Below, one piece after another: positions 29,022-49,333 of a DNA stretch of 64,000 bases; the first letter of the stretch is position 1; every line of letters starts with the position of its first letter. Source of the stretch: Lachnospiraceae bacterium Zagget2 (GTDB taxonomy: Bacteria; Bacillota; Clostridia; Lachnospirales; Lachnospiraceae); assembly GCA_001941045.1 (NCBI GenBank), contig MSHD01000030.1, forward strand, positions 19,528 through 83,527, given 5' to 3'. A model generated the notes under the pieces. It had not been told where the DNA came from. It saw nothing but the letters and a program-made list of their open reading frames with translations, and made no database searches. The translations under genes were made by a program, and so were the position numbers.

Positions 29022-29025
29022 CGTC

Positions 29026-30016: not shown

Positions 30017-30029
30017 TGTGGGTCCTCCT

Positions 30030-30365: not shown

Positions 30366-30403
30366 CACATCCCCCACCCAATAAGCTGGAATCTGGCGCT
30401 TAA

Positions 30404-30616: not shown

Positions 30617-30760
30617 TTCACCCCGGCCCCTTTCCTTTGATGCCTGCATCGTATCATTTCTCCCTTCGTATACTCAACCGACCGGAGGTTTATCTCAAGT
30701 CGACCGCTGGTTTAGCGCCGGCAGGCTCCCGCTGTTCACCTGTAAGTTTCCCTGGTTCCT

Positions 30761-31498
30761 TTACAGAATTCTCTCCGGGCAAAAGTTCAGGAAATCTCCG
30801 GAAACCAGATGATACATGATCCCATGATAGTTTCCGCGAATGCTGTCCCCAAAGCGGCTTTCCCCGTGGCAATGGGAATACACCACATGTTCCACATGAT
30901 ATTGTTCCGCAATCCGTGTAAAGACACTGTCTGTCTCGATGATGCTGGTCGGCGGATAGTGCAGAAACAGAATAAATTTCCGATATCCCGCCGCCAAAGC
31001 CGCATCAAAAGAGGTCTGTAGTCTTATCATTTCCCGCTCGTTCAGCTTTTTCGCGCGCTCTTCCTGCGCTTCATCCCAGCCGGTAATTCTGCCTTTTCGA
31101 TCCAGATAAAAAGGCCCTTCAAACGCGTACCCTTTGGTTCCTACCAGCGCATAATCTTCATATGCATAATAATTGTTCTGCAGGAACGCGAGTCTCCCCT
31201 GATATTCCCGATTCAATCGCACAGTCTTCTTCACGTTCCAGAACATATCGTGGTTGCCCCGGAGCAGAATCTTCCGCCCCGGAAGCGCCTCGATAAATGC
31301 GAGATCCTCCCTGCATTCTTCCAGGTTTCTCCCCCAGGAATGATCTCCGGTGATTACGATCGTATCCTCCGGACAAACCAGCTTATTACAGTTCTTCTGG
31401 ATTTTCTCTTCATGCCCTCTCCAGACTCTCCCGAACATATCCATCGGTTTATTAGCCTGGAAGGAAAGATGAAAATCACCGATCGCGTATAGTGCCAT
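30761..31498 (-). CDS. Calcineurin-like metallophosphoesterase
   Basis: AIGDFHLS, GDHSWG, RGNHD, FLHYPP, YSHCHG. Confidence 0.88.
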   Translation of the reverse strand: MALYAIGDFHLSFQANKPMDMFGRVWRGHEEKIQKNCNKLVCPEDTIVITGDHSWGRNLEECREDLAFIEALPGRKILLRGNHDMFWNVKKTVRLNREYQGRLAFLQNNYYAYEDYALVGTKGYAFEGPFYLDRKGRITGWDEAQEERAKKLNEREMIRLQTSFDAALAAGYRKFILFLHYPPTSIIETDSVFTRIAEQYHVEHVVYSHCHGESRFGDSIRGNYHGIMYHLVSGDFLNFCPERIL

Positions 31499-31670
31499 AA
31501 ACACTCCTTATCTCCACGAGAGAAATCTTAAAAAATATATTCGATAGGTCTCTATCGTTCGATCAGTATATCTCCCTCGACACATCATGCCCAGATGCAT
31601 AAATATTCATTGCAACAAATCGAAAAACTGGAAGTTGTCAGCAACATGACAACAGATCAAAAAATTCAAT

Positions 31671-32594
31671 TTATATACAGTTCATGATTACACTGATCAT
31701 CATTTCTTTTTCATCTGGATTAGATTCTGCAACCATAATTGTCAACGCAACCAGTGTATGATCATCGATTGTTTTTCCCCATTTACAAACAATGCCTCAT
31801 TTTTATTTAAGAAATACTGCCGCTGCGATCCGTTTATTTCCATCAGCGAAGCTATGGTTTTTCGTAATAAAATACAATAAGTTAGCTGCTTTCTCCTCCA
31901 ATGTGGGATACAGGTCATTTCCGCCGAAACTTTGATAAATCGCACCAATGCTTCCTTTAAAAGAATCATCCTTCTCTTTTCCAAACAAGGTACTTTCGCT
32001 CCCGAATTTCATATGATCAATAAGCACTCGACACTCTTCATAAGTCAAAACATAGGTCGCCTGATTTCCATTTGGACGCGACATATTCTGATGATCATAC
32101 GCGTCTAAAAGATCTAGCGCCTGACTATATTTCTCTACTACAGACAATACCTGCTTTGTATCAAGGTTATTCTCCGCACGCTTCATCACCCGAATCACCT
32201 CGTTTAACTGATTCATACGGTTATGATTCACTGCGTATCCCTTAATTATGTATTCCTTCAGAACCGAGTTCGCCCAACGTCTGAATTCAACTCCTCGTTT
32301 TGATTTGACACGGTAGCCAACGGATATAATCACATCTAAACTATAGTGCTCAATCTGACGCAAAACTTCACGTTCTCCCTCTTTTTGAACTGTCGCAATT
32401 TTTGCGACAGTTGCGGATTCCCTGTCCAGTTCTTCTTTTAAAGCATTTGAAATATGCTTACCAATCGTTTTAATATCTCTGTCAAATAATTCTGACATTT
32501 GATTTCTATTAAGCCATACCGTATCATTTTCCAAAATTACAGGTAATTGTATCTTGTGATCTGTACTTTCAAATAACACAAGTTTTTGCTCCAT
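31671..32594 (-). pseudogene. RhuM-like N-terminus + Fic/Doc domain, frameshifted near C-terminus
   Basis: TVWLNRNQMSELF, YSLDVIISVGYRVKS, HSFADGNKR; stop right after AAAVFLK; NKNEALFVNGEK and TIDDHTLVALTIMVAESNPDEKEMMISVIMNCI (stop 31671) sit in two other frames. Confidence 0.8.
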
Positions 32595-32685
32595 TTCGGT
32601 TCATCCCTTCTGTTTTAAGTATTCATTGGTTAACTGTATTTAACATTTATATATACCATAAACTCCAATTTGTCTATTCCTTTTT

Positions 32686-33602
32686 CTACTGTTTAACATC
32701 TTCGGCTGCATCAACAGACAGGATTTCCTTTCGCTTTCCAATCAGATAGACGATGCCGACCGTATCCGCCAGGAACCAGCCAATCGGAATGGCCCACCAG
32801 ATTCCCGCGACCCCAATCGCGGAAACCGGCGACAAAAGATAAGCAAGCGCAACACGGGTCCCCAGCGAAATAATCGTCAGAACAAAAGACATGGCAGGCT
32901 TTCCAATCGCCCGATAGAAACCATAAAGCAAAAACAGGCAGCCGATACCACAGTAGAAAGCGCCTTCAATGTGCAGATACCGCACGCCTTCCTCGACAAT
33001 CACCGTCTCTGATGCGGATACAAAGATCTGCATCAGTTTCTCTGCCTGGAACCACAGAACGAAAGAGGCAGCGGCACAGTAAGTGATGGAAGTCAGTGCG
33101 GCACATTGGATGCCCTTAACGACACGCTCCTTTTTACCCGCTCCCATATTCTGGGCGATAAACGTTGAAAACGCATTGCCATACTCCTGTGCTGGCATAT
33201 AGGCAAACGAATCAATCTTGACAGCCGCGGCAAATGCCGCCATGATCGTTGTCCCGAAACTGTTCACCAGCCCCTGCACCGTCAGGAGGACGGCGGCGGC
33301 CGCAATCAGCAAAAAGGCCGTTCCCACCGACTCTTTTAGCTTTTGCTCATCCTTCTGACCAAAACACAGCGAGAACACAACCCCGCTTCCCATACACAGC
33401 CCCAGAAGAATGGACGTCAGAAAAACCATCAGCGTATATGCGCTTCCTACACCTGCCAGTGCATCGGAGCCAATACAGTTTCCGACCACCCAGGTATCTA
33501 CCACATTATACATCTGCTGCAGCAGGTTTCCGAGCAGCATCGGCAGCGCGAAAATACTGATCGTCCTGAATACAGGGCCTTTGTCATATCCCTTTGTCTC
33601 AT
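32686..33602 (-). pseudogene. MATE efflux transporter with frameshift and large internal deletion
   Basis: MRQRDMTK then shift to PVFRTISIFALPMLLGNLLQQ; the first half jumps from AAAVLLT to VQGLVNSFG; ~300 aa versus ~450 typical. Confidence 0.8.
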
Positions 33603-34255
33603 GTATAATTCAGTAAAACCTCCTGAAGCTCATCAACCGACCGGACAATCCGGAACGGTTTTTCCGAAAGCAGCTCCCGCATCGTCCCGTAGCCATAGGA
33701 TACGGCTATACAGGGAATCCCATTTTTCCTGGCTCCGATAATGTCATGCTCTTTATCGCCAACCATAACGATGTTTTCCCGCTTTTCGCCTGATTTCAGT
33801 CTCGTCAGGGCCTCCGCAATCACATCCGCTTTCCCGGTCCTTTTTTCATCCATCGTAGCGCCGACGACTTCGTCAAAATAATCCCGGATGTGAAAATGCT
33901 CCAGTATTTTCAGCACATAAAATTCCGGTTTGGAAGAGGCTACCACCAACGTGTTGCCCTTCTCTTTTAAAATTTTCAGCATCTCTTCGATCCCGGGGTA
34001 GGGCCTGTTCTCAAAGATACCGATCGTCGCGTACCGTTCTCTGTAATACACGACCGCTTCTTCTGCTTCCGTCCTGCTCATCCCGGAATATTCCATAAAC
34101 TGTTCAATCAGAGGCGGCCCGATAAACACGCGGAGCTTTGCGGCATCAGCTTCCTGTTTCCCCATTTTCTCCAGGGCATACTGAACCGATTTTGTGATTC
34201 CTTCCCCCGACTCCGTCAAAGTCCCATCCAGATCAAATAAAATACATTTTCTCAT
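33599..34255 (-). CDS. HAD-superfamily hydrolase
   Basis: LFDLDGTLTES, VASSKP, MVGDKEHDIIGA. Confidence 0.9.
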   Translation of the reverse strand: MRKCILFDLDGTLTESGEGITKSVQYALEKMGKQEADAAKLRVFIGPPLIEQFMEYSGMSRTEAEEAVVYYRERYATIGIFENRPYPGIEEMLKILKEKGNTLVVASSKPEFYVLKILEHFHIRDYFDEVVGATMDEKRTGKADVIAEALTRLKSGEKRENIVMVGDKEHDIIGARKNGIPCIAVSYGYGTMRELLSEKPFRIVRSVDELQEVLLNYT

Positions 34256-34274
34256 ATCTGCCTCTCCACATTCA

Positions 34275-35090
34275 TTACTGCCAGTTTCGTTTCAGAACCT
34301 CGCTTTTCAGCAGAAGGGTGCTCCGTGACGTCTCCTTGACAGGGTGAAGTTTTCCACGCCTGATCAGGTCATTGATGTTCTGTCTGGAGCAGCCCAGTAT
34401 TTCTGCCGCCTCCGCGGTATTGATAATCCGCTGCGCCGCAAAAGCGCGAAAATCTTCCATCACGAGCGGGACGCGCTCTCCGTATTGATATAAAAGATAG
34501 TCCGGAATATCCATATTCTCATCCCAGGCGACTCCATGTCCGCCGATCTCCATCCGCACGCTGTCAAACAGCTCCTCATTTCTCAGCAGAACAGAAAAAC
34601 GATCGCGTTCCCTGAACCAGCCGCTTAAGTCACATCTGCGCACCAGTCCGTCCCGAAAGAAAACAAGTAGTGTGCTATGCCCCAGAGAAATAACATCCTC
34701 GACCCGTTTCTCAAAGCGTCCCTGTATCTGCGGCGGCAACTCCTGCTCCTTTATCGGGAGGAGATAACAGTCGTCCTGCGCGCATCTTCCCAGGGACAGC
34801 AGAAGCAGTTCATATTCATCATACTCTTTCAGGCCGTTTTCTTTCAGCACCTGCCCGATATTCTGGCGATCCGGCGGAACAATTCTCTGCTGCACCCACA
34901 TTCTGCTCCAGTACGAGTTGACCGTTTTCTCTCCCTTTTTCACAAAGGAAGACAGCAGCAGCGGCGTCTCCCACTCGTCTGCTTCATCGGGAAGTTCGAT
35001 GTAAAAACGCTTTTCCGCCTCATAGTAGAGAAGCCATGCCAGATCCTTCTGAAGCTCCGCGCTCTCATCCTTGATTGCAAATATTTTCAT
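34275..35090 (-). CDS. HipA-N-like / DUF2442-like / excisionase-type HTH fusion
   Basis: RIVPPDRQNIGQVLKENGLKEYDEYELLLLSLGRCAQD; LLVFFRDG..CDL..FDSV..GGHGVAW..DI; INTAEAAEILGCSRQNINDLIRRGKL. Confidence 0.7.
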   Translation of the reverse strand: MKIFAIKDESAELQKDLAWLLYYEAEKRFYIELPDEADEWETPLLLSSFVKKGEKTVNSYWSRMWVQQRIVPPDRQNIGQVLKENGLKEYDEYELLLLSLGRCAQDDCYLLPIKEQELPPQIQGRFEKRVEDVISLGHSTLLVFFRDGLVRRCDLSGWFRERDRFSVLLRNEELFDSVRMEIGGHGVAWDENMDIPDYLLYQYGERVPLVMEDFRAFAAQRIINTAEAAEILGCSRQNINDLIRRGKLHPVKETSRSTLLLKSEVLKRNWQ

Positions 35091-35889
35091 ATACGCACCA
35101 CCGTTTCCAGATCATATCCCATATTTTATCCCGAAGATTCTGCGAAATCACATCGTCCAGCCCCTGCATAAGAAGCGCTCTGTGTTCGGGCAAGAGTCGC
35201 CGCAGCTTCGGGAACTGCCCCGGCGGTATGAATGTCAGATTTTCCTGTGTTGATCTGGAACCGATCCAGGTGTTGGTGAGCCGATCTTCCATCACGTCAT
35301 GCCCCGCGACGCTCTCCTCTGTAAGGCAGCTGAACAGTAAAGACAAGCCGTGGTCAAACAGCGGAGCCAGACGCAACGTCCGTTTCCGGCCATCACGCAG
35401 CAGTTCCATATTCGCGCCATGACGATCCCTGTTCAGAATAAGATAATCCACCACAAACATGGTATAAATATAGTCTGCCCACCCGTTGCGGATACAGAAA
35501 TCCAGTGGTGTTTCCCCTTTTTGATGCTCGCTTTCGTAATATACGTCCAGCGCAATCTTGCTCTCGCCCCGCTGCTTGAAATCGCGGGAAGCGCAGAGAA
35601 ATACTTCCTGCCGCCGCTCGCCAACCAGAATATCCGCATGAATCAGCTGATAATGCAGATGCTCTACACCCAGTACCGTGAGCAGCCGGTCAACAATCAG
35701 TTCATTTACACATTCATGACCGATCACGCCACGCATACTATCGTAATTAGAAAGCTTATAATAAATCTTTTCTCCTCCTAATTCCGAGTATGCTTTCAGG
35801 AACGATCCGGCTGTCCCTGAAGAATTTCGGCTTCTCGTCCAGGATAAATATGTGAGATCCTGCTTTTCCAATACAATATCTCCGCCCAT
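35065..35889 (-). CDS. HipA-like kinase
   Basis: GTAGSFLK, HECVNELIV, VDYLILNRDRHGANM, LAPLFDHGLSL; overlaps the downstream gene by 26 nt. Confidence 0.8.
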   Translation of the reverse strand: MGGDIVLEKQDLTYLSWTRSRNSSGTAGSFLKAYSELGGEKIYYKLSNYDSMRGVIGHECVNELIVDRLLTVLGVEHLHYQLIHADILVGERRQEVFLCASRDFKQRGESKIALDVYYESEHQKGETPLDFCIRNGWADYIYTMFVVDYLILNRDRHGANMELLRDGRKRTLRLAPLFDHGLSLLFSCLTEESVAGHDVMEDRLTNTWIGSRSTQENLTFIPPGQFPKLRRLLPEHRALLMQGLDDVISQNLRDKIWDMIWKRWCVYENICNQG

Positions 35890-35906
35890 AAAGACCTCCT
35901 GAAAAA

Positions 35907-35947
35907 AGTATAGCCAACTACTTGTCATATGTCAAGTAGTTGGCTAT
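35907..35947 (-). promoter_or_regulatory. Sigma-A promoter embedded in a 38-bp palindrome (also terminator-like)
   Basis: ATAGCCAACTACTTG-TCATATGT-CAAGTAGTTGGCTAT; minus strand TTGACA(35930-35)-N17-TATACT(35907-12) followed by TTTTT. Confidence 0.85.
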
Positions 35948-35982
35948 GATTTTCATCCGAACTTCCGCCTCGGTCTCGTGTT

Positions 35983-36354
35983 TTAATCGGAGGCCAGAAT
36001 CATCTCCTTCAATTCTCTGCAGGCCTTCAGAATTTCCCCGATCATCTCCGGACTGATTCCGTCAAGGTGGAGCCCGCAGCTGCAGACCACGGTGCAGTTT
36101 TTCTGAGTGGCAACCGCCTCCGCGATCTCACGGGCGACCACTTCCTCCTTATGTCCCAGGCAGTTCAGCACGGAAGTCGTCGCGCTAATGCCTTTTCCTG
36201 TCAGGCTGGGGCGCGCCGCGGAAAGACAGACGGAGCCGACATGTCCACCCGCCTCATCCCACAGACAGACCGTGTAATCCCTGCCCATCTCGATCACTTC
36301 GCAGTGCAGCGTGGTCCCGCACACGGATTTCTCATAATACCTCCTCATCCCCAT
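35983..36354 (-). CDS. lpdD: LpdD-like prenylated-flavin chaperone
   Basis: GGHVGSV, LGHKEEVVA, TVVCSCGLHLD; follows ubiD-ubiX. Confidence 0.7.
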   Translation of the reverse strand: MGMRRYYEKSVCGTTLHCEVIEMGRDYTVCLWDEAGGHVGSVCLSAARPSLTGKGISATTSVLNCLGHKEEVVAREIAEAVATQKNCTVVCSCGLHLDGISPEMIGEILKACRELKEMILASD

Positions 36355-36905
36355 CTTCTGAAATCCTCCGTTTCAATTCCAAAGGGCTGCAGCAGTCTTC
36401 CCACAATCTGTCGTTCCATCTCCGCGAGGCTCCCTGGATTGTGATAATAGGTGAGCACCGGCGGCATGAGAAAGACGCCCGGAATCCGCGAAAGCTTCAG
36501 CATGTTTTCCAGATGAATCGAGCTTAAGGGCGTCTCCCGCACCGCAAGAACGAGCTTTCGCTGCTCCTTGATCGTCACATCCGCCGCGCGCAGCAGCAGA
36601 TTATCGCTGTAACCATTCGCAATGCCGCTGACCGTTTTCATGGCGCAGGGCAGGATGATCATGCCGTCTGTCGGAAAACTGCCGCTCGCGACCGCTGCGC
36701 CGATATCGCTGTTGTCATAGCTCACGTCCGCGAGCGCGCGGATATCGTCCGCGGCAAGGTCACTCTCGTACTTTGCGGTCAGCTCTGCTCCCCGGGTGAA
36801 AATGACATGCGTCTCCACCTCCGGATTTTTCTTCAGTTCTTTCAAAAGGCATACGGCCAACGGAAAGCCGCTGGCTCCTCTGATGCCCACAATCAGACGT
36901 TTCAT
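36345..36905 (-). CDS. ubiX: Flavin prenyltransferase UbiX/LpdB
   Basis: IVGIRGASG, ASGSFPTDGMIILPCAMKT, DNLLLRAADVTIKEQRKLVLAVRETPL, MPPVLTYY. Confidence 0.93.
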   Translation of the reverse strand: MKRLIVGIRGASGFPLAVCLLKELKKNPEVETHVIFTRGAELTAKYESDLAADDIRALADVSYDNSDIGAAVASGSFPTDGMIILPCAMKTVSGIANGYSDNLLLRAADVTIKEQRKLVLAVRETPLSSIHLENMLKLSRIPGVFLMPPVLTYYHNPGSLAEMERQIVGRLLQPFGIETEDFRRWG

Positions 36906-38380
36906 ATTTTCATCTCGTCAGCCCACTTCTCCATGTCGATGTCCATGAACTTCGCACGTTCGAAGCGTTCTTTCTGGTCATAGGGTACCGTGCAGTCGAA
37001 GATCGCCTTGCAGGCCACGCCCACCGCGCGGATATCCGGTGTGTACTCGGGATTGTTCGACGGGTCGAGCGGATGGCACTGCACGCCCGGTATCATGATA
37101 ATATCCTTGTCCGCCTGGAAGCGCGTCGTCATCGCCCACAGCACATCCTTGATGTCAAAGGGATCGACGTCTTCATCTACCAGAAATACATGTTTGAGCT
37201 CTGCGAAGGCGCTGAAAGCCAGCAAACCCGCCTGTCTCTGCCGCCCTTCATCGGAAGGCATTGTCTTTTTGAACTGCATGACCGCAATGTATTTCCCACC
37301 ACCTGAGGAGGCGCAGTACACATTCTTAAGTCTGCCGGGCATGGCCTTCTCCACCATGGCGAGGATGCTGGCCTCGGTCGGTATACCCGCCATGGAGACG
37401 TGCTCCTCGGACGGTCCGATGCAGGTCTGCATGATCGGGTTCCGCCGCGTTGTGACCGCCTTGACCTTGATGATCGGCAGCGCCGGATTGGCCGGTCCGC
37501 AGTATCCGGGGAACTCAGGCATCGCCTTGCCGGTGCCGGACTGAATATCCTCCTGAATCCTTCTTCCCGGCAGCACTTCTCCTTCGATCACATACTCCGC
37601 GTTCGCGATCGCGCGCTCATTGATCGTCAGGCATTTCACCAGCTCCACCGGTTTCTTCCGGATCGCGCCCGCAGCCTGCAGCTCGTCATAACCGAGCGGC
37701 GTCGTGGGCGGCTCAAAGCAGGCCGCAATCTCGATCGCCGGATCCACTCCGATCGAAATCGAGATGGGAAGCGGTTCATTCCGCGCTTCCGCCAGCTCGT
37801 AGAAATGTCCGATATGGCGCGCACCCGGCTGGAAGAAAATTGAAATCTCATCCTTGCTCTGCAGGCACATGCGGTGAATCGTCACATCCGAGGTCCCGGT
37901 CTCCGGGCTCGTCGCGTAGCACATGCCGAGCGTGATATAGGGGCCGGCGTCCTCCTCCGTGTTCGTCGGGGCCGGAACCAGCTTCCTCACATCAAAGTCG
38001 GGATCCGTCGCCAGATGCACGATTTCCTGGCACTTTGCCTGCTCATTCGGGATCACAACCGGCGGCAGCGGGTTGGATACGCTGTCCTTCAGCAGAAATC
38101 CCAGCTTCTGCGGATCACAGTCCAGCAGCGCTCCCACGCGCTTTCTGCTTGCCAGCACACCGATCGCGACGCGCGCGTCCGGGTGTCCTTTCACATTGTT
38201 AAATACCATCGCCGGGCCTTCCTTTGTGGGGCGCATCACCGTCCCGCCTGCTCCCACATGGCGATAAACGCCGGAGAGCTCCGCCATTGGCTCGACCTCC
38301 ACATCCGTTTCCAGCAGCTGCCCCGGCATCGTTTTTAAAAATTCCAGGGCTGAACGCAGGCTGTCTACCTGATTTCCCAT
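36902..38380 (-). CDS. lpdC: UbiD-family decarboxylase, LpdC/AroY (gallate/protocatechuate) type
   Basis: AELSGVYRHVGAGGTVMRPTKEGPAM matches the AroY/LpdC N-terminus; DVTIHRMC, PEFPGYCG, EEHVSMAGIPTEASI, HPLDPS. Confidence 0.85.
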   Translation of the reverse strand: MGNQVDSLRSALEFLKTMPGQLLETDVEVEPMAELSGVYRHVGAGGTVMRPTKEGPAMVFNNVKGHPDARVAIGVLASRKRVGALLDCDPQKLGFLLKDSVSNPLPPVVIPNEQAKCQEIVHLATDPDFDVRKLVPAPTNTEEDAGPYITLGMCYATSPETGTSDVTIHRMCLQSKDEISIFFQPGARHIGHFYELAEARNEPLPISISIGVDPAIEIAACFEPPTTPLGYDELQAAGAIRKKPVELVKCLTINERAIANAEYVIEGEVLPGRRIQEDIQSGTGKAMPEFPGYCGPANPALPIIKVKAVTTRRNPIMQTCIGPSEEHVSMAGIPTEASILAMVEKAMPGRLKNVYCASSGGGKYIAVMQFKKTMPSDEGRQRQAGLLAFSAFAELKHVFLVDEDVDPFDIKDVLWAMTTRFQADKDIIMIPGVQCHPLDPSNNPEYTPDIRAVGVACKAIFDCTVPYDQKERFERAKFMDIDMEKWADEMKI

Positions 38381-38393
38381 AGCTTTCCTCCTT

Positions 38394-40781
38394 TTATTTT
38401 ACAGCTTCTGTAAGCTCTCCCCGCAGAAGAACCTTCTTTCCGCAGAGTTCCAGACGGACGTCCTCCGTTCCTGTGAGATTCTTCACTCTTACCTTTTCAT
38501 GATCCGCCGACACCTCCAGTTTCTGGCCCCGCCAGAGAATCGTATATACCAGGCGGCTCCATTCCTTCGGAAGGAAGGGGGCGATGCGAAGCTCTCCGCC
38601 GAGCATACGCAGTCCGCCGAAGCCATAGACCACACCCTGCCAGATTCCGCCGAACGAGGCGGTATGAATACCCGCATTCGAGCTGCCCATGACCGGTCCC
38701 AGATCGATCTGCGCGGATTTCTCAAAGAGATCATAGGCCATCTCCCCTTCCCGCATATCCGCGGCCAGCACCGCATGCGTGCAGAGGGAAAGCGACGAAT
38801 CATGCAGCGTCCTTGCCGCGTAATATTCCCAGGTCGCAGCCTTGACCTCGTGTGGGAACAGCTCCTCCAGCAGGAAAAACAGCACCAGCACATCCGCCTG
38901 CTTGCTGACCTGTATCTGATTGATCTGGGTCAGATTATAGTCGCGGAAGATTCCGTTCACGAAATCCTGCGACCTGTACTTGGACAGATCGATATCCTTC
39001 AGTGTCAGATAGGTGGAGTCCTGAGGCAGAATTCCCTGTTCATTCGGCACCGGCAGAAATACCCTGTCCACCTTTTCCGTCCACTGCTGATAATATGTCT
39101 CGAGATCCAGCTTCTCACACAGCCGCGCAAAGAGTTCCGGTTTCTGCTCCTTCAGAAGCTCATAGTATTCCATCGCCTTGCGGATGTTCCACACCGCAAG
39201 ATAATTTGTGAAGGCGTTGTCGGTCTTGTGCTCCTTGTACTCGTCGGGTCCCACCACATCGCAGATATGATAGAGACCGTCGTCCGTGACTGTCTCCGAG
39301 AATTCGGTCACCCCGGTCTTGGGGTTGATGCTCTCGTGAATCTGGCGGCACTTATCCTCCAGTCTCGACATCCAGAAACGCGCCGTATCAAAGATCAGCT
39401 CATAGCCGTAGCGCTCCATATAATCCTCGTCCCCGGTGATCGCGTAATACTGCCACACGCCGAAGGCCACATCCGCCGTGATGTGCTGCTCGATAAATCC
39501 CGACCATACCTTGATGGGAAGTCCCGTGACGATATCCACATCCTGATATTCCGGCGTCACCTCGCCATCGTCCAGCCATGCGGATTCCCAGGGAAACATC
39601 GCTCCCTGATAGCCATTGTGCTCTGCCTTCCGGTGCTCGCCCGGCAGCGACAGATAGCGGTACTCCTCCAGCTTGCGGGCCGTCTCCGGCTGCGTGAAGA
39701 TATAGTAGGGAAGCAGGAAAATCTCGGTGTCCCAGAAGCAATGCCCCCGGTAACCCTCGCCGGAAAGTCCCTTCGCGCCGATATTCAGCCGGTTGTCGTG
39801 CGCCGGCACCATCAGCCGCAGATGGTACTGCGCAAAACGGATCGCAAACTGATCGAAATCATTCCCCTCGATCGTGATGGGAATTCTGTCCCAGACCTCC
39901 TGCTTCCAGGCAGCCCCGGTTTCTGATGCGAGCGCGTCATATCCCAGCTCCAGCAGACCCTTCAGATCCGCGAGGGATCTCGTCTGCAGTTCAGAAACAG
40001 TCGCGCCTTCCGCGTCAAAATCCCGCGTTGTGAAGACGTTACAGTACTTTTCGATCGTCAGCGTTTCTCCCTGCTCCGCCTCCAGCTCGTATCCGCCGTA
40101 CACCTTCCGCAGCTCCATATACACCTGCGTCGGGACGTCCAGTTCCTCGCCATTCTTCGCGAAACGGTGCACCGTATTCAGCACAAAGCTGATGCCTGAC
40201 TCCGTCGTCTTCGGCACAAACTGCATGTATCTGTTTTCATAAAAGCGTTTGTCGCCGTCCGTGAAATGCTGTGCACCGGTGTTGGTGACGCGCCCGTCGA
40301 TACCGGAGCGGACTTTGATTTCCATTTTCCCGGAGAGCGGCGTGATCTCCACGCGGCTCGCGAAATCATGAAGCCTCTCAAGAGATACGACTCTGCGAAA
40401 ATGCAGCCTCACCTGGTCGCCCTCCGGCGAGGTCCACACGACCTTCCTTGTAAGCTCCGCTTTGCGGATGTCAAGCTCTCTTTCGTATTCCTCGATTTTC
40501 CCCTTCTCCAGGTTAAAGCGCACGCCGTTCAGCCACAGCTCGATCGCCGTCATGTCCGGGGCATTCGGGAGCTCAGTCACCGCGGTCGGGTCAGATTTGT
40601 TGAAGGTTCCGCCCACCAGCAGATCCCGCGTTTCATGCAGGTACTTCTCCTCCGTCGCGCTGCGCAGCCCGAGATAGCCGTTTCCCAGCGACATCACCGC
40701 CTCGCACTTCCCAAGCTGTTCTTCGTCAAAACAGTCCTCCCGGAGAATCCAGTCGTTTATCTTACTGTAATCCATTCCCAT
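38394..40781 (-). CDS. Glycoside hydrolase family 65 (alpha-glucoside phosphorylase-like)
   Basis: GNGYLGLRSATEE, GAKGLSGEGYRGHCFWDTE, VVGPDEY, SKQAD, HDSSLS, GIHTASFGGIW; start reset to MGMDYSK. Confidence 0.92.
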   Translation of the reverse strand: MGMDYSKINDWILREDCFDEEQLGKCEAVMSLGNGYLGLRSATEEKYLHETRDLLVGGTFNKSDPTAVTELPNAPDMTAIELWLNGVRFNLEKGKIEEYERELDIRKAELTRKVVWTSPEGDQVRLHFRRVVSLERLHDFASRVEITPLSGKMEIKVRSGIDGRVTNTGAQHFTDGDKRFYENRYMQFVPKTTESGISFVLNTVHRFAKNGEELDVPTQVYMELRKVYGGYELEAEQGETLTIEKYCNVFTTRDFDAEGATVSELQTRSLADLKGLLELGYDALASETGAAWKQEVWDRIPITIEGNDFDQFAIRFAQYHLRLMVPAHDNRLNIGAKGLSGEGYRGHCFWDTEIFLLPYYIFTQPETARKLEEYRYLSLPGEHRKAEHNGYQGAMFPWESAWLDDGEVTPEYQDVDIVTGLPIKVWSGFIEQHITADVAFGVWQYYAITGDEDYMERYGYELIFDTARFWMSRLEDKCRQIHESINPKTGVTEFSETVTDDGLYHICDVVGPDEYKEHKTDNAFTNYLAVWNIRKAMEYYELLKEQKPELFARLCEKLDLETYYQQWTEKVDRVFLPVPNEQGILPQDSTYLTLKDIDLSKYRSQDFVNGIFRDYNLTQINQIQVSKQADVLVLFFLLEELFPHEVKAATWEYYAARTLHDSSLSLCTHAVLAADMREGEMAYDLFEKSAQIDLGPVMGSSNAGIHTASFGGIWQGVVYGFGGLRMLGGELRIAPFLPKEWSRLVYTILWRGQKLEVSADHEKVRVKNLTGTEDVRLELCGKKVLLRGELTEAVK

Positions 40782-40797
40782 GGTTTTTCTCCCCGTA

Positions 40798-42534
40798 TTA
40801 ACGCGCGCAGATCGATTCGATCCAGTCACAGAGCTCGCCCGGATAGTCCGCCTCACAGTGCGGCTTATCCCACACGAGCGCATAGTCCACATCCTTCCCC
40901 GCATTCGCAAGCTCCAGAGCCAGCGTCATGCTGACAGAGAAGGAGGTGTCGGCGTCGCCTGCGCCCACGCGGATCCGATAATGCTCCGCACAGTCGCTCT
41001 TCTCTTCCGTGCCGATATAGTTCAGCGGATTGATCAGGTATTTCTGCCTGGTAAGCGCGCTGTCTTCCGCCACCTGCGCGTATTTCTCATAATAACGCGC
41101 ATACTCTTCCGGAAATGCTTCCTTTAGGGAGGCAATCGCGTCGGCGATCTGCCCGGAAAAATGAGTGACCGGCATCGCCGCATCTCCAAATACCTTATTT
41201 TCCCCGCTGCTGCAGTTCAGCACGTCAAACGCCGTACAGGGCTTCATCCTGCGCCTGTGCGCGAGTACATAGCTGTCGAGATCGGAGACCGCGGCGGTAC
41301 TTCCGTCCCACTTCAGCCAGCCGCTCTTATCTTTTCCCTGCGCCATCACGGTCGGCGGCACAAAGGGCGGCGGGGTCGGCACTCCCTTCGGCGGTCTGGA
41401 AACCATGTCTCCGAGCGTCGGAGGCTCTGCGGGCGCGTCCCCTGCCATGCCCGCGGGCGGCTTTCGGAGCGCCACGCCCGGTCCGGCATGACCCTGCATC
41501 AGATCGGACTCATCGTCCTTGTTGTCTCCGCCCATCGGCGCTGCGATCTCGTAAGTGTAATTTCCCTTCAGATAATCATCCGCCGTATAGCTTTCCGCAA
41601 GTTCTCCTCTGTCCAGCTTTCCAAGGAACTTCGTCGCGGACTGATTCAGAAGATTCATCAGATACGCGTATCCGCTGCCGCTTCTGCCATCCGCGCCAAG
41701 CATGATCGCCGCGCCTGTCTTCGGATCTTTCAGGCCAAGACCATTAAAATACGCGATATAGGCCTCCTTCAGCTTTCCGGAGAGCGCCTCCTCAAACGGA
41801 GTCATCGTCCCGGCCGGTCCCGCAGGCGAGGCCTCGTTCTCCTTATCCGCCGAGAACATCCACTCATACGCGAGATCCGCGTGTTCCAGATCGATGATCG
41901 GACAGTAAATCTGTGAAGCATATACGTCGTCGCGCTCTTCCATGAAAGCGCCCGCTTCTTTTAAAGCTTCTTCATAATTCGCGCTGTTTCCTGTCACGCC
42001 GACCAGCGTGGACATCGCCCCGCCGGCACTCCAGCCAACAGAGATGATCCGATCCATATCGCCCGGAATCAGCGCGCTGTTATGACGCAGGAAGCGCAAC
42101 GCCATCTTCAGATCGATCAGATTCGCCGGCGCCTTGCCGCAGCGCCGCCCTTTTGCATCCTTCGACTCATGCCCCCGGTTCCCGCTTGTCACATACACAA
42201 ATCCTCTCTCGAGATACTGCGGACCGAAGCAGCGCGGTCCGCCGAGCCACATATGCGGCATCTGCATATAGCCCGCAGAATTGTTATTGAAAATGACGGG
42301 CGCTGTCTTCGCCGTGTAGCCGTTCATGCTGCCCTGCGGATCGATCACACCGCCCTCCTTCATATAGGGCTCAGGAACAAAAATACTCATCCGCTGAAAT
42401 TTCGGGCATTCTGCTTTTGGCGTATACAGAATATCTTCCAGGCACCAGCAGTTGTAGGTTTCATCAAAAAACCACTGATCCTGCACTTCAGACAGTTCCA
42501 TGGTCTGATTAATCACCGGAATATCATTTCCCAT
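40798..42534 (-). CDS. Subtype-B tannase-like esterase, no signal peptide
   Basis: NGYTAKTAPVIF, GKAPANLIDLKMALRFLRHN..IPGDMDRIISVGWSAGGAMS, YCPIIDLEHADLAYEW, RIRVGAGDADTS, WDKPH. Confidence 0.78.
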   Translation of the reverse strand: MGNDIPVINQTMELSEVQDQWFFDETYNCWCLEDILYTPKAECPKFQRMSIFVPEPYMKEGGVIDPQGSMNGYTAKTAPVIFNNNSAGYMQMPHMWLGGPRCFGPQYLERGFVYVTSGNRGHESKDAKGRRCGKAPANLIDLKMALRFLRHNSALIPGDMDRIISVGWSAGGAMSTLVGVTGNSANYEEALKEAGAFMEERDDVYASQIYCPIIDLEHADLAYEWMFSADKENEASPAGPAGTMTPFEEALSGKLKEAYIAYFNGLGLKDPKTGAAIMLGADGRSGSGYAYLMNLLNQSATKFLGKLDRGELAESYTADDYLKGNYTYEIAAPMGGDNKDDESDLMQGHAGPGVALRKPPAGMAGDAPAEPPTLGDMVSRPPKGVPTPPPFVPPTVMAQGKDKSGWLKWDGSTAAVSDLDSYVLAHRRRMKPCTAFDVLNCSSGENKVFGDAAMPVTHFSGQIADAIASLKEAFPEEYARYYEKYAQVAEDSALTRQKYLINPLNYIGTEEKSDCAEHYRIRVGAGDADTSFSVSMTLALELANAGKDVDYALVWDKPHCEADYPGELCDWIESICAR

Positions 42535-42555
42535 TATTTTCTCTCACCTCCTGTT

Positions 42556-43201
42556 TTATAATAGCACAATCTTCTTTAATTCTTCAATGGACTGCATGGG
42601 CCAGGTGGCCGTCTCTGCCGCCTCTCCGATCCCGGCGCTGTCCATCCCTCCGCGCGTCGCGGCTGTCACGCCGGCCTTCGCATCCTCCACGACCAGACAC
42701 TTTTCCGGGGAAAGTCCCAGCATTTCAGCCGCTTTCAGGAACACCTCCGGATCCGGCTTGGAATGCGTGATATTCGTCCCGTCGCTGACCGCGTCAAAAC
42801 AGTTTTCCAGCCCCAGCCTTTCCAGTATCAGTTTTGTATTTTTACTGGACGAGCCGATCGCGATCCGGATTCCGGCCTTCTTCAGCGTTCTCAGCACATC
42901 CTGCACATCCGCCGGAAGATCTTTCTCCGACATCTGAAAGAGCAGTTCCCGGTACATCCGGTTTTTTTTCTCACACAGTCTTTCCTTTTCCTCCGGAGAA
43001 TAGCTCCGCTCTGCCTTTTCCAGGATAATCTCCAGGCTCGCCATCCGGCTCACGCCCCTTAAGCGGTCGTTTGATTTTCCCGTCAAAATAAATGCCTTCT
43101 TCATCCGCGATGGCTTTCCACGCAAGATAATGATACTTGTCTGTAAAACAGATCACACCGTCCAGGTCAAAAATCACCGCCTGATATCGCACTCTTTTCA
43201 C
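42556..43201 (-). pseudogene. pgmB: Beta-phosphoglucomutase, split by a +1 frameshift
   Basis: IFDLDGVICFTDKYHYLAWK in one frame; NDRLRGVSRMASL..SSSKN..KPDPEVF..VVEDA in another; extra A at about 43072-43074. Confidence 0.85.
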
Positions 43202-43204
43202 CTC

Positions 43205-44842
43205 CTACAGGCGCGCGTCCGGCAGGCCGCAGAACGCGTCGACAGGGGACACTCCCTTAAATTCACTTTTTCCGAGCAGCTTTTCGATCACCGCTTCAAT
43301 CATTGCGCGATGACAGCTGTACGCATTGATATAAGTCTTCACCCGCGGCACGTCCTGCAGATGATAAGGATTGGAGAAGGAAACAAAGACAGCACTTTCT
43401 TCCCACACATGACGCGGCACGTCGAGTGCGTGCTTTTTCGCCCAGTTCAGCCGGATCGTAGTCTGATTGGAGGCATGCTCGCAATTTGCCAGATACAGCG
43501 TCAGCCGTTTCCTGTCAAGCGCACCGGTCCCGTGCATCTCTTCCTTTTCGATATCAAAGCGCTCCGTCTGAAAGCCTTCCCTTTGCAGGATTTCCTCCGC
43601 GATCGCGGTCATACTGCCATCCACCGTATGGTCATTTCCGAGCGTCACCAGCCGGATAAGAGGATATTCCTCGGGGCTGATCGGAAGCAGTTCTTCTATA
43701 TTTTTTACAAGTGTCACGCATTTATCCGCGCATTCTGCCTGCCACAGCTTCGCCTCTGGCATCGGCTCCGTCTTCGGCCTGTTTCCTGCGACTTTTGCCT
43801 TCAGAGCCAGAATGCGGCTGACCTCTTCGTCAAGACGCGACTCCGTCAAAGCCCCACTTTCCAGGCCGTCCAGCATATACTGGTAATCCTCGTAAAAATC
43901 TGTGCTGAATACCAGCATATCACAACCCGCCGCGATAGCGGTCGGTATCGCATGCCGCCGCGGCATCGCCTGCGTAAATCCGCTCATGATCGTCGCATCC
44001 GTCGTGATCAGGCCGTTAAAGCCAAAACGCTCACGCAGCACGCCCGTGAGCAGCTCCCGGCAGAGCGATCCCGGCAGACAGTCCTCAAAGCGCAGCTTTG
44101 GATTGATCTCCATCGCCACATTTGGCTGTACGATATGTCCCACCATGACGCTCATCAGGCCGTCCTCGATCAGCTGCTGATAGATTGCTCCATAGCTGGC
44201 AAACCAGTCCTTTGCCGACAGACTGTTGTAGGTCGGATGCAGGTGCTGATCCCGGAAATCCACGCCATCCCCCGGAAAATGCTTCGCGCAGGCCGCCATT
44301 TCGTTTTTCTGCAAAGTTTTTACATAAACGGAGCAGAGCCGTTTGACGCGCTCTACATCTGAGCCGCAGGTACGGACATTGGTGATCGGATTCCGGTAAT
44401 TCATGTCGATATCGCATACCGGGGAAAAGGCCCAGTTGACCCCCGTCATCTGCCCCTCCCGGGCGCAGACGGTGGCGAACTTCTCCATCATTCCGTCCTC
44501 ATCCGTCGCCGCCACAGTCATCGGCCAGCCAAAGAAGGTACCGTCGCTGATTGCTCCGCTTCCGCCCTCCTCCAGGTTCGCCGCCCGCAGAAGGGGAATC
44601 CTGGCAGCGGCGTCCAGCACAGCGTACCAGTCCCTGATATCCGCCGCGGGCGCGGGGCGATAGAGGACGCCGCCCACATTGTACTCGGTGACGATCCGCT
44701 CCAGCTCCTTCAGTTCAAAATCACCGCCCATCACACAGAAAAGCTGCCCCACCTTCTGCCGGACGGACAGGGAATCCCGCGTCTCATTGACCCAGCGCAG
44801 CTCCTCCTCCGTCAGATAAAACGGCTTCTTCCTTAAATCCAT
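43205..44842 (-). CDS. Glycoside hydrolase family 3
   Basis: NLEEGG, FSPVCDI, NPITNVR, KHFPGDG, MSVMVGHI, ITTDAT; no signal peptide; start reset to MDLRKKP. Confidence 0.9.
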   Translation of the reverse strand: MDLRKKPFYLTEEELRWVNETRDSLSVRQKVGQLFCVMGGDFELKELERIVTEYNVGGVLYRPAPAADIRDWYAVLDAAARIPLLRAANLEEGGSGAISDGTFFGWPMTVAATDEDGMMEKFATVCAREGQMTGVNWAFSPVCDIDMNYRNPITNVRTCGSDVERVKRLCSVYVKTLQKNEMAACAKHFPGDGVDFRDQHLHPTYNSLSAKDWFASYGAIYQQLIEDGLMSVMVGHIVQPNVAMEINPKLRFEDCLPGSLCRELLTGVLRERFGFNGLITTDATIMSGFTQAMPRRHAIPTAIAAGCDMLVFSTDFYEDYQYMLDGLESGALTESRLDEEVSRILALKAKVAGNRPKTEPMPEAKLWQAECADKCVTLVKNIEELLPISPEEYPLIRLVTLGNDHTVDGSMTAIAEEILQREGFQTERFDIEKEEMHGTGALDRKRLTLYLANCEHASNQTTIRLNWAKKHALDVPRHVWEESAVFVSFSNPYHLQDVPRVKTYINAYSCHRAMIEAVIEKLLGKSEFKGVSPVDAFCGLPDARL

Positions 44843-44862
44843 AAGCTCTCCTTTTAGGGGAT

Positions 44863-44892
44863 TGCCCCGGCGCCTTTGGGCGTGCCGGGGCA
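44863..44892. other. GC-rich intergenic stem-loop without U-tract
   Basis: TGCCCCGGC-GCC-TTTG-GGC-GT-GCCGGGGCA between esterase and GH3. Confidence 0.6.
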
Positions 44893-44896
44893 TCCT

Positions 44897-45832
44897 TTAG
44901 AGGTATTTGCTGATAAAGTTCCAGATAATATCCAGATTTTTATCCTCACCGTACTGTTTGTCTTCATGATCAGCTGTCGGCAGCGTTGTGAACTCCACGC
45001 GCTCCTCCCCGATTTTTGCCTTCACGGCTTCCACCAGCTTCACGGACTGCTGATATGGTACCAGCCGGTCCACACAACCATGCTGCACCAGCAGCGGCGC
45101 CATCCCATCATTGATATAGGTGATCGGATTCGCCTTCGCCAGATATTCCTTATCCAGCGTCGGGAGCGGACCGCCCATATAGCTGCTCTCCGCGGATTCC
45201 GGCTGGTCGTGGTCGACGAAGCTGACGCCGTTCTCGCGCGCCATATCGTCCATCACCGCGAAGTCCACCGGGCCGAACTGATCCACCGCCACATTGACAT
45301 GACAGTCTTCCGTAAAGCTTTTCCCCTCTTCCCCAGGGAACGCCCCGTTCGGGATGTTCATACCCAGTATCGCGCTTAAGTTTCCCCCGGCGGAACCACC
45401 GATTGTAGCCATGCGCTCCGGGTCAAGGCGATACTTCTGCGCATTCCTTTTCAGGAAGCGCACCGCCTCCCGGCAGTCCAACACCGCTGCGGGAAAGATT
45501 GCTTCCCCGCTCAGCCGGTACTCGATGGAGCCCACCGCGATCCCTTTTGCAAGGAATTTCAGATAGGTATCCATATGATCGTCGCGCTTGTCTCCCAGGC
45601 CAAAGCCGCCGCCGTGGATATGAAGTAGTACCGGGAATGGTCCTTTGCCATCCTCCGGATAATAGAGGTCCAACCGCTGATTCGGCGATTCCTCCGCGTA
45701 CTGCACATCCAGCAGCTTATCCTTCACCCAGCTGATATCCGCCATCTTCACCTGCATATCCGCAGGCGGTCCGTCAAAGCGGAGCGAGCCGTCCAGCGCG
45801 TCATAATCCAGTGTTTCCTTTTTTTCTTCCAT
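44897..45832 (-). CDS. Alpha/beta-hydrolase esterase (HSL/BD-FAE-like)
   Basis: IHGGGF, GGSAGG nucleophile, QHGCVDRLVP, ADHED. Confidence 0.88.
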   Translation of the reverse strand: MEEKKETLDYDALDGSLRFDGPPADMQVKMADISWVKDKLLDVQYAEESPNQRLDLYYPEDGKGPFPVLLHIHGGGFGLGDKRDDHMDTYLKFLAKGIAVGSIEYRLSGEAIFPAAVLDCREAVRFLKRNAQKYRLDPERMATIGGSAGGNLSAILGMNIPNGAFPGEEGKSFTEDCHVNVAVDQFGPVDFAVMDDMARENGVSFVDHDQPESAESSYMGGPLPTLDKEYLAKANPITYINDGMAPLLVQHGCVDRLVPYQQSVKLVEAVKAKIGEERVEFTTLPTADHEDKQYGEDKNLDIIWNFISKYL

Positions 45833-45850
45833 TTTCTGTCATCTCTCCTT

Positions 45851-47224
45851 TTACGCTTCCATCGGCGGTCTCTTGTCTCCGATCTGCGCGCGGATCTGCG
45901 GCATATATTTCTCCACGTCCATAAGCAGGATGCCGATGATCAGCAGGACCGCGAGGATCACGCCCAGCCAGCCAAAGCCGAAGCGCACGATATTGACCAC
46001 GGCCTCAGACTGCACCGCCGCAGTCGCCTCATAGCCCGCGAAGGCCAGCAGGAAAGCCGGAAGTGCCTGACCAAGTCCCATACCGATCTTGGAGCCGATA
46101 GACTGGGAGGAAGCCATGAATCCCTCTGAGCGGATACCGGTCTTCCATTCTCCATAGTCAGCGGCGTCCGCGCAGAACGCGTAGAGGCCGGCGAACATCG
46201 GGCTGATGCCGAGCGAACGAATCACGGTGCCCGCGAGCAGCATAGTGACATTGGCGCCCGCCATACCTGTCACAGCAAAGCCAATCGCCAGGATGATGCC
46301 ACAGCCGGTCAGGAAAATCCGCTTGGAAAATTTATTGGATATGTAGGGCATGAACAGCAGCATGATCAGTCCGGGCGCCTGGCCGAAAGCCATGAGCTGC
46401 ACCAGCACTGCCGGATTGTTCAGTACGATGTTGCAGTAGTAAATCTGGAACGCGACTGCGTTCGCGTTGATCAGCAGGATAATGACGCCGAGCACCAGCG
46501 CAATCCAGAAATAACGGTTTGTGAGGACCGCTTTCAGCTGCGTCATCATCGGAACGTCACTCTTCGGCGCGGGCGCTCCCGGGCCATCCATCTCGACGAC
46601 CTCATCCACACCGACCGTCTCCTTGCAGAACAGTCCCGGAATCATGATCAGCACGCAGGCGATCACGCCGAGAATCAGTCCGGTATTCGCCCAGCCGATC
46701 TGCAGGTACATGGCCGCGACCGCCGTGCTGACCACCAGACCAACAATGCCGTTCATCAAGGATGAGAAGGTGGACGTCGTGTTGCGGTCTTTCGGGTCGC
46801 GCGTCATACGTGCGAGCAGCGCGGTATGCGCGACGCCGACGATCGTGTAGACAATGCAGTTGACAAAAATATAGGTGACGTAAGCATATACAATCTTCGT
46901 GCCGTCAGCCCAGTTCGGATTGACGCGGAAGGTCAGCGTCATGCCGAGCAGCATCAGCGGGCCTGCGGCGATCAACCAGGGTCTCGCCTTGCCCAGTTTA
47001 CTTTTGGTTCTGTCCACCAGGCCGCCCATGACAAAGTCTGTGATACCGTCAAACACACGGCAGATCACCATCATGCTGGCCACAGCCGCCGCCGCGATCA
47101 GCGCGGTATCCGTGTAGTAACTCAAAAGGAAGCTGGCAAACACGGTACTGACAACATTGCCGCCTCCCGCGCCGCAGCCGTATGCCAGCTTTCGGCTTAC
47201 CGGGATCTTTTTACTTTCGTTCAT
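45851..47224 (-). CDS. GPH-family MFS glycoside:cation symporter
   Basis: RVFDGITDFVMGGLVDRTKSKLGKARPW, DAADYGEWKTGIRSEG; ~12 TM segments. Confidence 0.9.
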   Translation of the reverse strand: MNESKKIPVSRKLAYGCGAGGGNVVSTVFASFLLSYYTDTALIAAAAVASMMVICRVFDGITDFVMGGLVDRTKSKLGKARPWLIAAGPLMLLGMTLTFRVNPNWADGTKIVYAYVTYIFVNCIVYTIVGVAHTALLARMTRDPKDRNTTSTFSSLMNGIVGLVVSTAVAAMYLQIGWANTGLILGVIACVLIMIPGLFCKETVGVDEVVEMDGPGAPAPKSDVPMMTQLKAVLTNRYFWIALVLGVIILLINANAVAFQIYYCNIVLNNPAVLVQLMAFGQAPGLIMLLFMPYISNKFSKRIFLTGCGIILAIGFAVTGMAGANVTMLLAGTVIRSLGISPMFAGLYAFCADAADYGEWKTGIRSEGFMASSQSIGSKIGMGLGQALPAFLLAFAGYEATAAVQSEAVVNIVRFGFGWLGVILAVLLIIGILLMDVEKYMPQIRAQIGDKRPPMEA

Positions 47225-47420: not shown

Positions 47421-48329
47421 TTGAATCTGGAATATTTTCGCGAATTTGTCGTACTGGCTGACACTGCCAATTATTACGAGGCCGCGGACCGGCTTTATAT
47501 GGGAGAGTCCACCCTCTCAAAGCATATTAAGTCAATGGAGAAGGAACTCGGGGTCAGCCTGTTCGACCGCTCTACCCGCAAAATCGCCCTGACAAACTTC
47601 GGCAAGCTTCTTTTGCCCTACGCCAAGACCATCATGCAGGCGCAGTTCGATTACACCGCGGAGCTGGAAAATGAAGTAGAATCCCTGCGGGGCCGCGTCA
47701 CGGTCGGCACCATCTCCTCCACCGCAAAATATGGCATCACCGGTATCGTCTCCCGCTTTAAAAAGCTGCATCCGGACAGCACGGTCCGCATGTTCGAGGG
47801 TGATCCTGACGATCTGGTGACACAGCTCAACAGCCGCAAGTGCGACGTGATCTTCGCGCATCTGCCGGAGAGCGCTTCCGCGTCCATCGCCTTTGAGAGC
47901 ATTCATTACTGCGACGATTCGCTGGTCTGCATCCTGCCGCTCGATCACCCGCTCGCAGGCGAAAAGGTACTGCATCTCAATCAGCTTAAAGACGAAAACT
48001 TCGTCGTGCTGGCCGAGAATAGTACCATCCATAATCTCATTATAGACAGTTGTCACAGGGTTGGATTCTCGCCGAAGATGGCGTTTATCTGCCACAGAGT
48101 GGACAGCGTCCTGGATCTGGTGACGAAAGGAATGGGCGTCGCCCTCCTGACGGAATATCTGACTTTCCGCCCGGAAGACGGCAATTTCCCGGAGAATGCC
48201 CCCTTTGCCGTCGCCCACGTATTACCCGAGGTAAACGTGTCCGTCAATCTCTGCTACCGCAAAGGGGACAGGCTCTCGCCCATGGCGAGACAGTTCGTAG
48301 AACTGGTGAAAGACATGATAAAGGAATAG
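47421..48329 (+). CDS. LysR-family regulator divergent from the catabolic cluster
   Basis: TTG start after GGAG; YYEAADRLYMGESTLSKHIKSMEKELGVSLFDR. Confidence 0.92.
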   Translation: MNLEYFREFVVLADTANYYEAADRLYMGESTLSKHIKSMEKELGVSLFDRSTRKIALTNFGKLLLPYAKTIMQAQFDYTAELENEVESLRGRVTVGTISSTAKYGITGIVSRFKKLHPDSTVRMFEGDPDDLVTQLNSRKCDVIFAHLPESASASIAFESIHYCDDSLVCILPLDHPLAGEKVLHLNQLKDENFVVLAENSTIHNLIIDSCHRVGFSPKMAFICHRVDSVLDLVTKGMGVALLTEYLTFRPEDGNFPENAPFAVAHVLPEVNVSVNLCYRKGDRLSPMARQFVELVKDMIKE

Positions 48330-49310: not shown

Positions 49311-49333
49311 AATAAATACCTCACTTTCGATTT

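Follow-up and report, generated by a model that had tools for sequence, protein, structure and literature searches.

A kojibiose-phosphorylase-like GH65 gene in a tannase and decarboxylase operon of a Lachnospiraceae bacterium: a probable accessory arm of a beta-glucose-1-phosphate module

A stretch of 64,000 nucleotides of Lachnospiraceae bacterium Zagget2 (assembly GCA_001941045.1, contig MSHD01000030.1, positions 19,528 to 83,527, forward strand; hereafter the window) was analysed around a gene of glycoside hydrolase family 65 (GH65; 38394..40781, - strand), situated between a tannase gene and the gene of a UbiD-family decarboxylase. Judged by its conserved residues, this gene encodes a GH65 sugar phosphorylase rather than a hydrolase, and the likeliest identity of the enzyme is an ordinary alpha-1,2-glucoside phosphorylase. 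Our preferred interpretation, held with modest confidence, is that it is a kojibiose-type phosphorylase serving as the accessory arm of a module fused to tannin catabolism, the other parts of which are a family 3 glycoside hydrolase (GH3), a beta-phosphoglucomutase (beta-PGM) and a transporter of the major facilitator superfamily (MFS). The parts are all of known kinds and their conserved combination is new to the literature searched, in which no description of GH65 together with tannase, with or without a decarboxylase, was found.

The GH65 open reading frame (ORF) starts with an ATG at 40781, behind a GGGGAG ribosome-binding site, ends with a stop at 38394 and encodes 795 amino acids (aa), beginning MGMDYSK as homologues do. 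All three GH65 Pfam domains were matched: PF03636 (N-terminal, 189 bits), PF03632 (central (alpha/alpha)6, 379 bits) and PF03633 (C-terminal, 61 bits). [quoted passage not shown] An exact-sequence lookup of the window GH65 returned no record, and the public runs contained relatives only.

Functional residues were scored in 86 family sequences (85 relatives from the retrieved loci L001-L085, plus the window GH65), with roles assigned according to a 2024 review of GH65 (PMC11442529). In CsKP the catalytic acid is E483, phosphate is bound by K330, Y337, S631, S632 and H675, and the -1 subsite comprises F342, W343, D344, K596 and Q597; the phosphate-binding residues tell GH65 phosphorylases from hydrolases (PMC11442529). 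The catalytic acid (E514 in the window GH65) was invariant in 86/86 sequences, and the phosphate site (K337, Y344, S662, S663, H706) was kept in the window GH65 and invariant throughout the family. The -1 subsite (F349, W350, D351, K627, Q628) matched that of CsKP and was conserved in essentially every family member, K627 being kept in 85 of the 86. Because catalytic acid, phosphate site and -1 subsite are all conserved, the window gene is read as a phosphorylase and not as a hydrolase.

The alpha-1,2 specificity is read from the residues and loops around the +1 subsite. Four motifs have been described there: WET in kojibiose phosphorylase (KP) and kojibiose hydrolase, WEF in nigerose phosphorylase (NP), WRA in trehalose phosphorylase and MVI in maltose phosphorylase (PMC11442529). 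The window GH65 has W398, E399 and S427 at the positions of W391, E392 and T417 of CsKP; the reported effect of T417 mutation is mild (PMC11442529). A second set of correlated specificity positions (64, 392, 394, 402, 416 and 585) gives the signature EEAPxx for KP (De Beul et al., PMC8537180). In a HMMER alignment the window GH65 reads E70, E399, A401, P410, W426 and N616, that is EEAPWN, which fits this signature; HoGP of Halothermothrix orenii, an experimentally confirmed KP, has EEAPWS. Loops 3, 7 and 11 are within 0-3 residues of the CsKP lengths (long loops 3 and 7, short loop 11) and the N-loop is short. The features of maltose and trehalose phosphorylases were absent, with WES in place of MVI (KV[MF]NES) or WRA, and with long loops 3 and 7. 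Those of NP were absent as well (no WEF, with Ser at 417, and a loop 11 of CsKP length).

The preliminary description of this locus had proposed that the position of the GH65 gene implies an unrecognised alpha-glucosyl substrate, and the comparison of GH65s from different gene contexts argues against that proposal. Loop 3 of the window GH65 is identical to that of L004, where the gene is an orphan, and of L017, where beta-PGM is the only relevant neighbour, and it differs at four positions from that of L019, a sugar operon with an ABC transporter. All scored determinants are shared with L071, which holds beta-PGM, a ROK sugar kinase and GH65 in that order. Outside loop 3 the specificity regions were nearly invariant across all GH65 gene contexts, and no residue signature dividing tannase-linked from unlinked GH65s was found among them. 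The alignments thus give no sequence support for a specificity change tied to tannase linkage.

Two local variants were considered as markers of the tannase setting and rejected. A short tannase-linked clade (L031, L042, L043, L047, L048, L050, L053, L055) has GETCPLY for GEVTPEY, a loop 3 motif equivalent to TPK; the same residue occurs in L045, L056 and L057, whose retrieved flanks contain no tannase, and the window's own clade lacks the GETCPLY variant of loop 3. The window GH65 carries an insert of 22 aa (about residues 475-496, with a beta-hairpin predicted at 478-499); this insert is also present in L014 and L017-L022, which have only an ABC transporter or beta-PGM nearby, and is missing from the short tannase-linked clade.

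The GH65 gene is the sixth of nine genes on the - strand, in the order GPH symporter, esterase, GH3, beta-PGM, tannase, GH65, UbiD, UbiX and LpdD-like protein, with gaps of at most 21 nt or overlaps. The gap is 16 nt from tannase to GH65 and 13 nt from GH65 to UbiD; ribosome-binding sites are present, and the one strong terminator follows the LpdD-like gene. The placement of GH65 between tannase and decarboxylase given in the preliminary description is confirmed by the domain matches, the tannase model NF041556 and the AroY match of the UbiD protein; for the word "gallate" in its name for the decarboxylase the ground is gene context.

The neighbourhoods of this operon were examined in three surveys of species-representative genomes, many of them metagenome-assembled genomes (MAGs) from few studies, so that the counts do not represent independent events. 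The GH65-centred survey covered 83 non-duplicate loci (54-98% identity). Within 10 kb of GH65, beta-PGM was present in 47 of these, a GH3 resembling the beta-glucoside phosphorylase BglP in 35, UbiD in 18 and tannase in 17. Among the loci linked to tannase, six gene orders or more were seen, some with GH65 at the 3' end of the operon after beta-PGM; their GH65s are spread over three clades, interleaved with unlinked ones, and the carriers belong to the Lachnospiraceae (including the cultured Petralouisia muris NM01_1-7b, locus L033/L112) and the Oscillospiraceae (Faecousia). The association of GH65 with tannase is more than chance, and on this point the preliminary description, which had taken the position of the gene as meaningful, was borne out.

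In the tannase-centred survey (80 loci) an esterase was found in 55, a LysR regulator, divergent from the MFS gene, in 49, UbiD in 47, GH3 in 44, an MFS transporter in 40, beta-PGM in 28 (27 with GH3) and GH65 in 16. The GH3-centred survey comprised 80 loci (L167-L246) within 8 kb, from Clostridia, Bacillus, Neobacillus, Enterococcus, Vibrio and others; beta-PGM was present in 45, usually adjacent, and 32 of those 45 contained no GH65, tannase or UbiD. From these counts GH3 and beta-PGM appear as a deep conserved pair, and GH65 as an accessory of the tannase cluster. Such pairs imply a widespread two-enzyme route from beta-glucoside through beta-glucose-1-phosphate (hereafter beta-Glc1P) to glucose-6-phosphate.

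The GH65 family also occurs in settings with no tannase. L019 reads histidine kinase, AraC-type response regulator, ABC sugar transporter, beta-PGM and GH65; L165 reads beta-PGM, BglP-like GH3, GH65 and MFS; in L004 and L005 the GH65 gene is an orphan amid housekeeping genes. A Blautia MAG (L164, 5529-16207) carries an AraC regulator, a BglP-like GH3, a GH78 alpha-L-rhamnosidase and a GH65 of the window family, together with a second GH65 (778 aa), a metallo-beta-lactamase-fold protein and a HAD protein; this locus resembles a rhamnoglucoside (flavonoid glycoside) form of the module. In a related cluster, L003, a shikimate kinase gene (14787-15302) follows UbiD and may hint at galloyl-shikimate or quinate substrates.

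The GH3 gene (43205..44893, - strand), two genes before tannase, and the beta-PGM gene that follows it were passed over in the preliminary description, which had contrasted the alpha-glucosides used by GH65 enzymes with the ester- or beta-linked glucose of tannins. The GH3 aligns at full length with the crystallised enzyme BglP (5VQD/5VQE, Macdonald et al. 2018 as cited in PMC8950772; residues 21-562 against 7-567 of 5VQD, 48% identity, E 4e-147); translation may in fact begin at the ATG at 44842, the start seen in L001. It carries the KHFPGDGVDFRDQH motif as in BglP (NagZ-type enzymes have DSH there), and the KHFPGDG...DQH motif is common to both, the Gln of DQH being the presumed specificity residue of the GH3. 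BglP is a retaining enzyme that yields beta-Glc1P. Just one other GH3 phosphorylase has been characterised, and the BglP class is represented by this metagenomic enzyme alone, which came from a screen with an artificial activated aryl glucoside (review, PMC8950772). Since BglP-like genes are conserved neighbours of tannase and a gallate-type decarboxylase, their natural substrates may be galloyl or aryl beta-glucosides, and 1-O-galloyl-beta-glucose and aryl beta-glucosides, with their good leaving groups, would be plausible. Since a BglP-type GH3 would handle the beta-linked glucose, the beta- or ester-linked glucose of tannins is no puzzle, and GH3 and beta-PGM already account for it. Production of beta-Glc1P by this GH3 would also explain why beta-PGM is present in tannase clusters that lack GH65, and GH3 and beta-PGM would supply the beta-Glc1P node that a GH65 requires.

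The route that we propose takes its enzyme activities and metabolite flow from the gene identities, residue conservation and neighbourhoods described above. All nine genes would be transcribed as one operon under the control of the LysR regulator encoded divergently upstream. Import would bring in small galloylated or phenolic glucosides, whose esters tannase and the esterase would remove; GH3 would free the beta-linked glucose phosphorolytically as beta-Glc1P, and gallate would be decarboxylated by UbiD, UbiX and the LpdD-like protein. GH65 would use phosphate to convert an alpha-1,2-glucosyl unit, with inversion, to beta-Glc1P and glucose or a glucose-like aglycone sugar, and so would act as a second, accessory source of beta-Glc1P for the shared beta-PGM. 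Its placement would reflect membership of a beta-Glc1P-funnelling module, also found without tannase, and not tannin-specific chemistry.

Several observations weigh against a kojibiose-type enzyme in this role. The chief one is that we know of no tannin or plant phenolic glycoside that offers an alpha-1,2-glucoside. The nearest characterised enzyme to this GH65 subfamily is about 40% identical, and at the position equivalent to T417 the 86 family sequences have mostly Ser (69), with Thr in the other 17. The EEAP proline aligns only with HMMER, that column being shifted by MAFFT. The comparison with NP was made by described motif and loop features, the sequences of NP and of glucosyl-rhamnose phosphorylase being outside the alignment. 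An AlphaFold2 model of the GH65 (pLDDT 74) falls below 50 in exactly the active-site loops and so lends no structural support. The repeated pairing of GH3 with GH65 in compact single-transporter operons hints at one common substrate, not two. Finally, the beta-PGM gene (42556..43201, - strand; TIGR01990 179.5 bits for the C-terminal part) contains a +1 frameshift, an extra A in the AAA at 43070-43072, which leaves the DLDGV N-terminus in a different frame. The 98%-identical L001 has AA at this site and an intact beta-PGM (TIGR01990 246.5 bits, cut-off 189.4), and a related contig in run X3 likewise lacks the extra base; the frameshift may stem from faulty assembly or be a genuine lesion. No other beta-PGM was found within the window: a HAD gene at 33599-34255 was considered as a spare and rejected as phosphoglycolate-phosphatase-like.

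The strongest competing explanation, which we regard as unlikely though deserving of serious attention, retains the idea of the preliminary description that GH65 acts on an unrecognised alpha-glucoside derived from tannins or phenolics. Its subfamily has no characterised member, and reviews call GH65 phosphorylases tolerant at subsite +1. The genomic evidence for it consists of the linkage to tannase and UbiD in 17/83 GH65 loci (at least six architectures, three clades, two families), the BglP-like GH3 within 10 kb of 35/83, and the compact beta-PGM-GH3-GH65-MFS operons with a single transporter. Against it, the specificity loops are the same in tannase-linked and unlinked members, relatives belong to plain ABC-sugar or glucokinase operons where neither esterase nor GH3 is needed, and only 16/80 tannase clusters contain GH65. 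We know of no naturally occurring galloyl or phenolic glucoside that carries an alpha-1,2-linked glucosyl group. The candidate substrates include an acylated disaccharide (galloyl- or feruloyl-sucrose, for example) once its ester has been removed.

In the more specific form of this explanation, GH65 and the BglP-type GH3 would work in tandem on a single imported alpha-1,2-glucosylated beta-glucoside, 1-O-galloyl-beta-glucose derivative or acylated disaccharide, which seems to us a shade more doubtful still. With a 2-O-alpha-glucosylated beta-glucoside or 2-O-alpha-glucosyl-1-O-galloyl-beta-glucose, for instance, the outer glucose would be released by GH65 and the inner one by GH3, both as beta-Glc1P. 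If this were true, every glucose of a galloyl or phenolic glycoside would be recovered as beta-Glc1P with no ATP spent, GH65 would have a new specificity, and the role of BglP-class GH3 enzymes would be the phosphorolysis of activated beta-glucosides such as beta-glucogallin.

GH65 might instead be a hitch-hiker, set beside beta-PGM for co-expression and with no part in the catabolism of tannins or glycosides. Two close orthologues, at 79% and 69% identity, do stand alone amid housekeeping genes and most tannase clusters have no GH65; the gene nevertheless sits within the operon, with flanking gaps of 16 and 13 nt, and the linkage survives several rearrangements in both Lachnospiraceae and Oscillospiraceae. 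We consider such an arrangement improbable. The prospects are poorer again for a synthetic direction, in which GH65 would join GH3-made beta-Glc1P and tannase-released glucose into kojibiose or kojioligosaccharides, or alpha-glucosylate a phenolic, the product serving for storage, as an osmolyte or for detoxification. GH65 enzymes work reversibly and one cell would generate both substrates, but the beta-PGM of the operon would draw beta-Glc1P into glycolysis, and neither an exporter nor further kojioligosaccharide enzymes were found. Least probable of all is that the gene encodes another of the activities known in GH65, that of a phosphorylase of nigerose, maltose or trehalose or that of a hydrolase. 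The identity of just about 40% to any characterised enzyme leaves room for this, but the WEF, MVI and WRA motifs are absent, loop 11 is short, unlike that of NP, and the fully conserved phosphate site makes a hydrolase unlikely.

The kojibiose-type reading was also compared with known systems. With CsKP and HoGP (kojibiose phosphorylase, EC 2.4.1.230) the window GH65 shares the four-domain GH65 fold, the catalytic Glu, the phosphate site, the -1 subsite, the +1 W-E pair, EEAPW[NS], long loops 3 and 7, short loop 11 and a beta-PGM partner; it differs in its identity of about 40%, Ser for Thr417, a loop 3 three residues longer, the 22-aa insert and the operon setting with tannase and decarboxylase. 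The likeness to BglP concerns the neighbouring GH3 gene and not GH65 itself: the product of BglP, beta-Glc1P, is the same as that expected of GH65, and the operon homologue adjoins beta-PGM in an operon with tannase and decarboxylase. E. coli ycj (YcjT and YcjU) likewise pairs a KP-type GH65 with beta-PGM in a larger sugar cluster, but YcjT (6W0P) is distant from the window GH65 (190 bits) and ycj has no GH3 phosphorylase, tannase or decarboxylase. Lactiplantibacillus plantarum (tannase TanB and gallate decarboxylase LpdB/C/D) is alike in its subtype B tannase, AroY/LpdC-type UbiD, UbiX and LpdD-like protein. In that species the tannin genes are dispersed and, to our knowledge, no phosphorylase is involved in the pathway; the window differs in that these genes form one operon, which also encodes a GPH symporter, an esterase and a pair of phosphorylases predicted to form beta-Glc1P.

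The remaining genes of the operon were identified as follows. The first gene (45851..47224, - strand) encodes a GPH/MFS glycoside:cation symporter (TIGR00792 gph, 247 bits, cut-off 231; PF13347, 238 bits), and the LysR-family regulator (47421..48329, + strand; NCBIfam and Pfam LysR matches) is divergent from it. The second is an alpha/beta-hydrolase esterase of the BD-FAE family (44897..45832, - strand; PF20434, 191 bits). The tannase (40798..42534, - strand; 578 aa) is cytoplasmic and of subtype B (NF041556, 353 bits, cut-off 300); it aligns with L. plantarum tannase 3WA6/4J0C (222 bits) and has a GWSAGG serine motif where 3WA6 has GTSAGG. Compared with the L. plantarum enzyme it contains an insert of about 100 aa (residues ~306-412) rich in Pro, Gly and Asp, and tannase length varies from 576 to 602 aa among relatives.

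Downstream of GH65 lie the genes of a decarboxylase trio on the - strand. The C subunit (36902..38380) is a UbiD-family hydroxyarylic acid decarboxylase of the AroY/LpdC type, with the 3,4-dihydroxybenzoate (protocatechuate) decarboxylase AroY (5NY5, 648 bits) as its best solved relative and a score of 480 bits, under the cut-off of 650, against the VdcC model NF041204. It is followed by a UbiX flavin prenyltransferase resembling LpdB/VdcB (36345..36905; NF004685, 237 bits, cut-off 188) and an LpdD-like small subunit (35983..36354; PF21758, 98.5 bits), for which no relative was found in the PDB. The closest solved UbiD relatives act on protocatechuate, and we infer gallate as the substrate here from gene context. 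A terminator-like hairpin (35910..35947, - strand; a 15-bp stem, then a T run) closes the operon, and no comparable hairpin was found within 35983-47224.

Outside the operon, a further alpha/beta-hydrolase gene past LysR (48336-49382, - strand; S15, dienelactone hydrolase or PETase-like) may represent an extra esterase of the locus. Just downstream of the operon, at about 28000-36000, GC content falls to 0.46-0.50. This region contains HipA-like ORFs at 28122-29021 (HipA_C match) and 35065-35928 (no Pfam match), a RhuM/Fic protein, an AbiEi-like HTH protein, a truncated MatE and the phosphoglycolate-phosphatase-like HAD gene, and resembles a mobile, toxin-antitoxin or defence islet.

Accounts of tannin catabolism in gut bacteria usually comprise tannase and gallate decarboxylase and leave the sugar to general metabolism. 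In the window the tannin genes share one operon with a pair of phosphorylases predicted to make beta-Glc1P and the mutase that would consume it, and such fusion occurs in dozens of genomes of Lachnospiraceae and Oscillospiraceae, whose sources are rodents, rabbits and ruminants. The arrangement suggests that the glucose of galloyl and phenolic glucosides is processed by phosphorolysis, with a saving of energy. It offers candidate substrates for two groups of enzymes, the kojibiose-phosphorylase-like GH65 subfamily and the BglP-class GH3, and Petralouisia muris, as a cultured carrier, makes the hypothesis testable.

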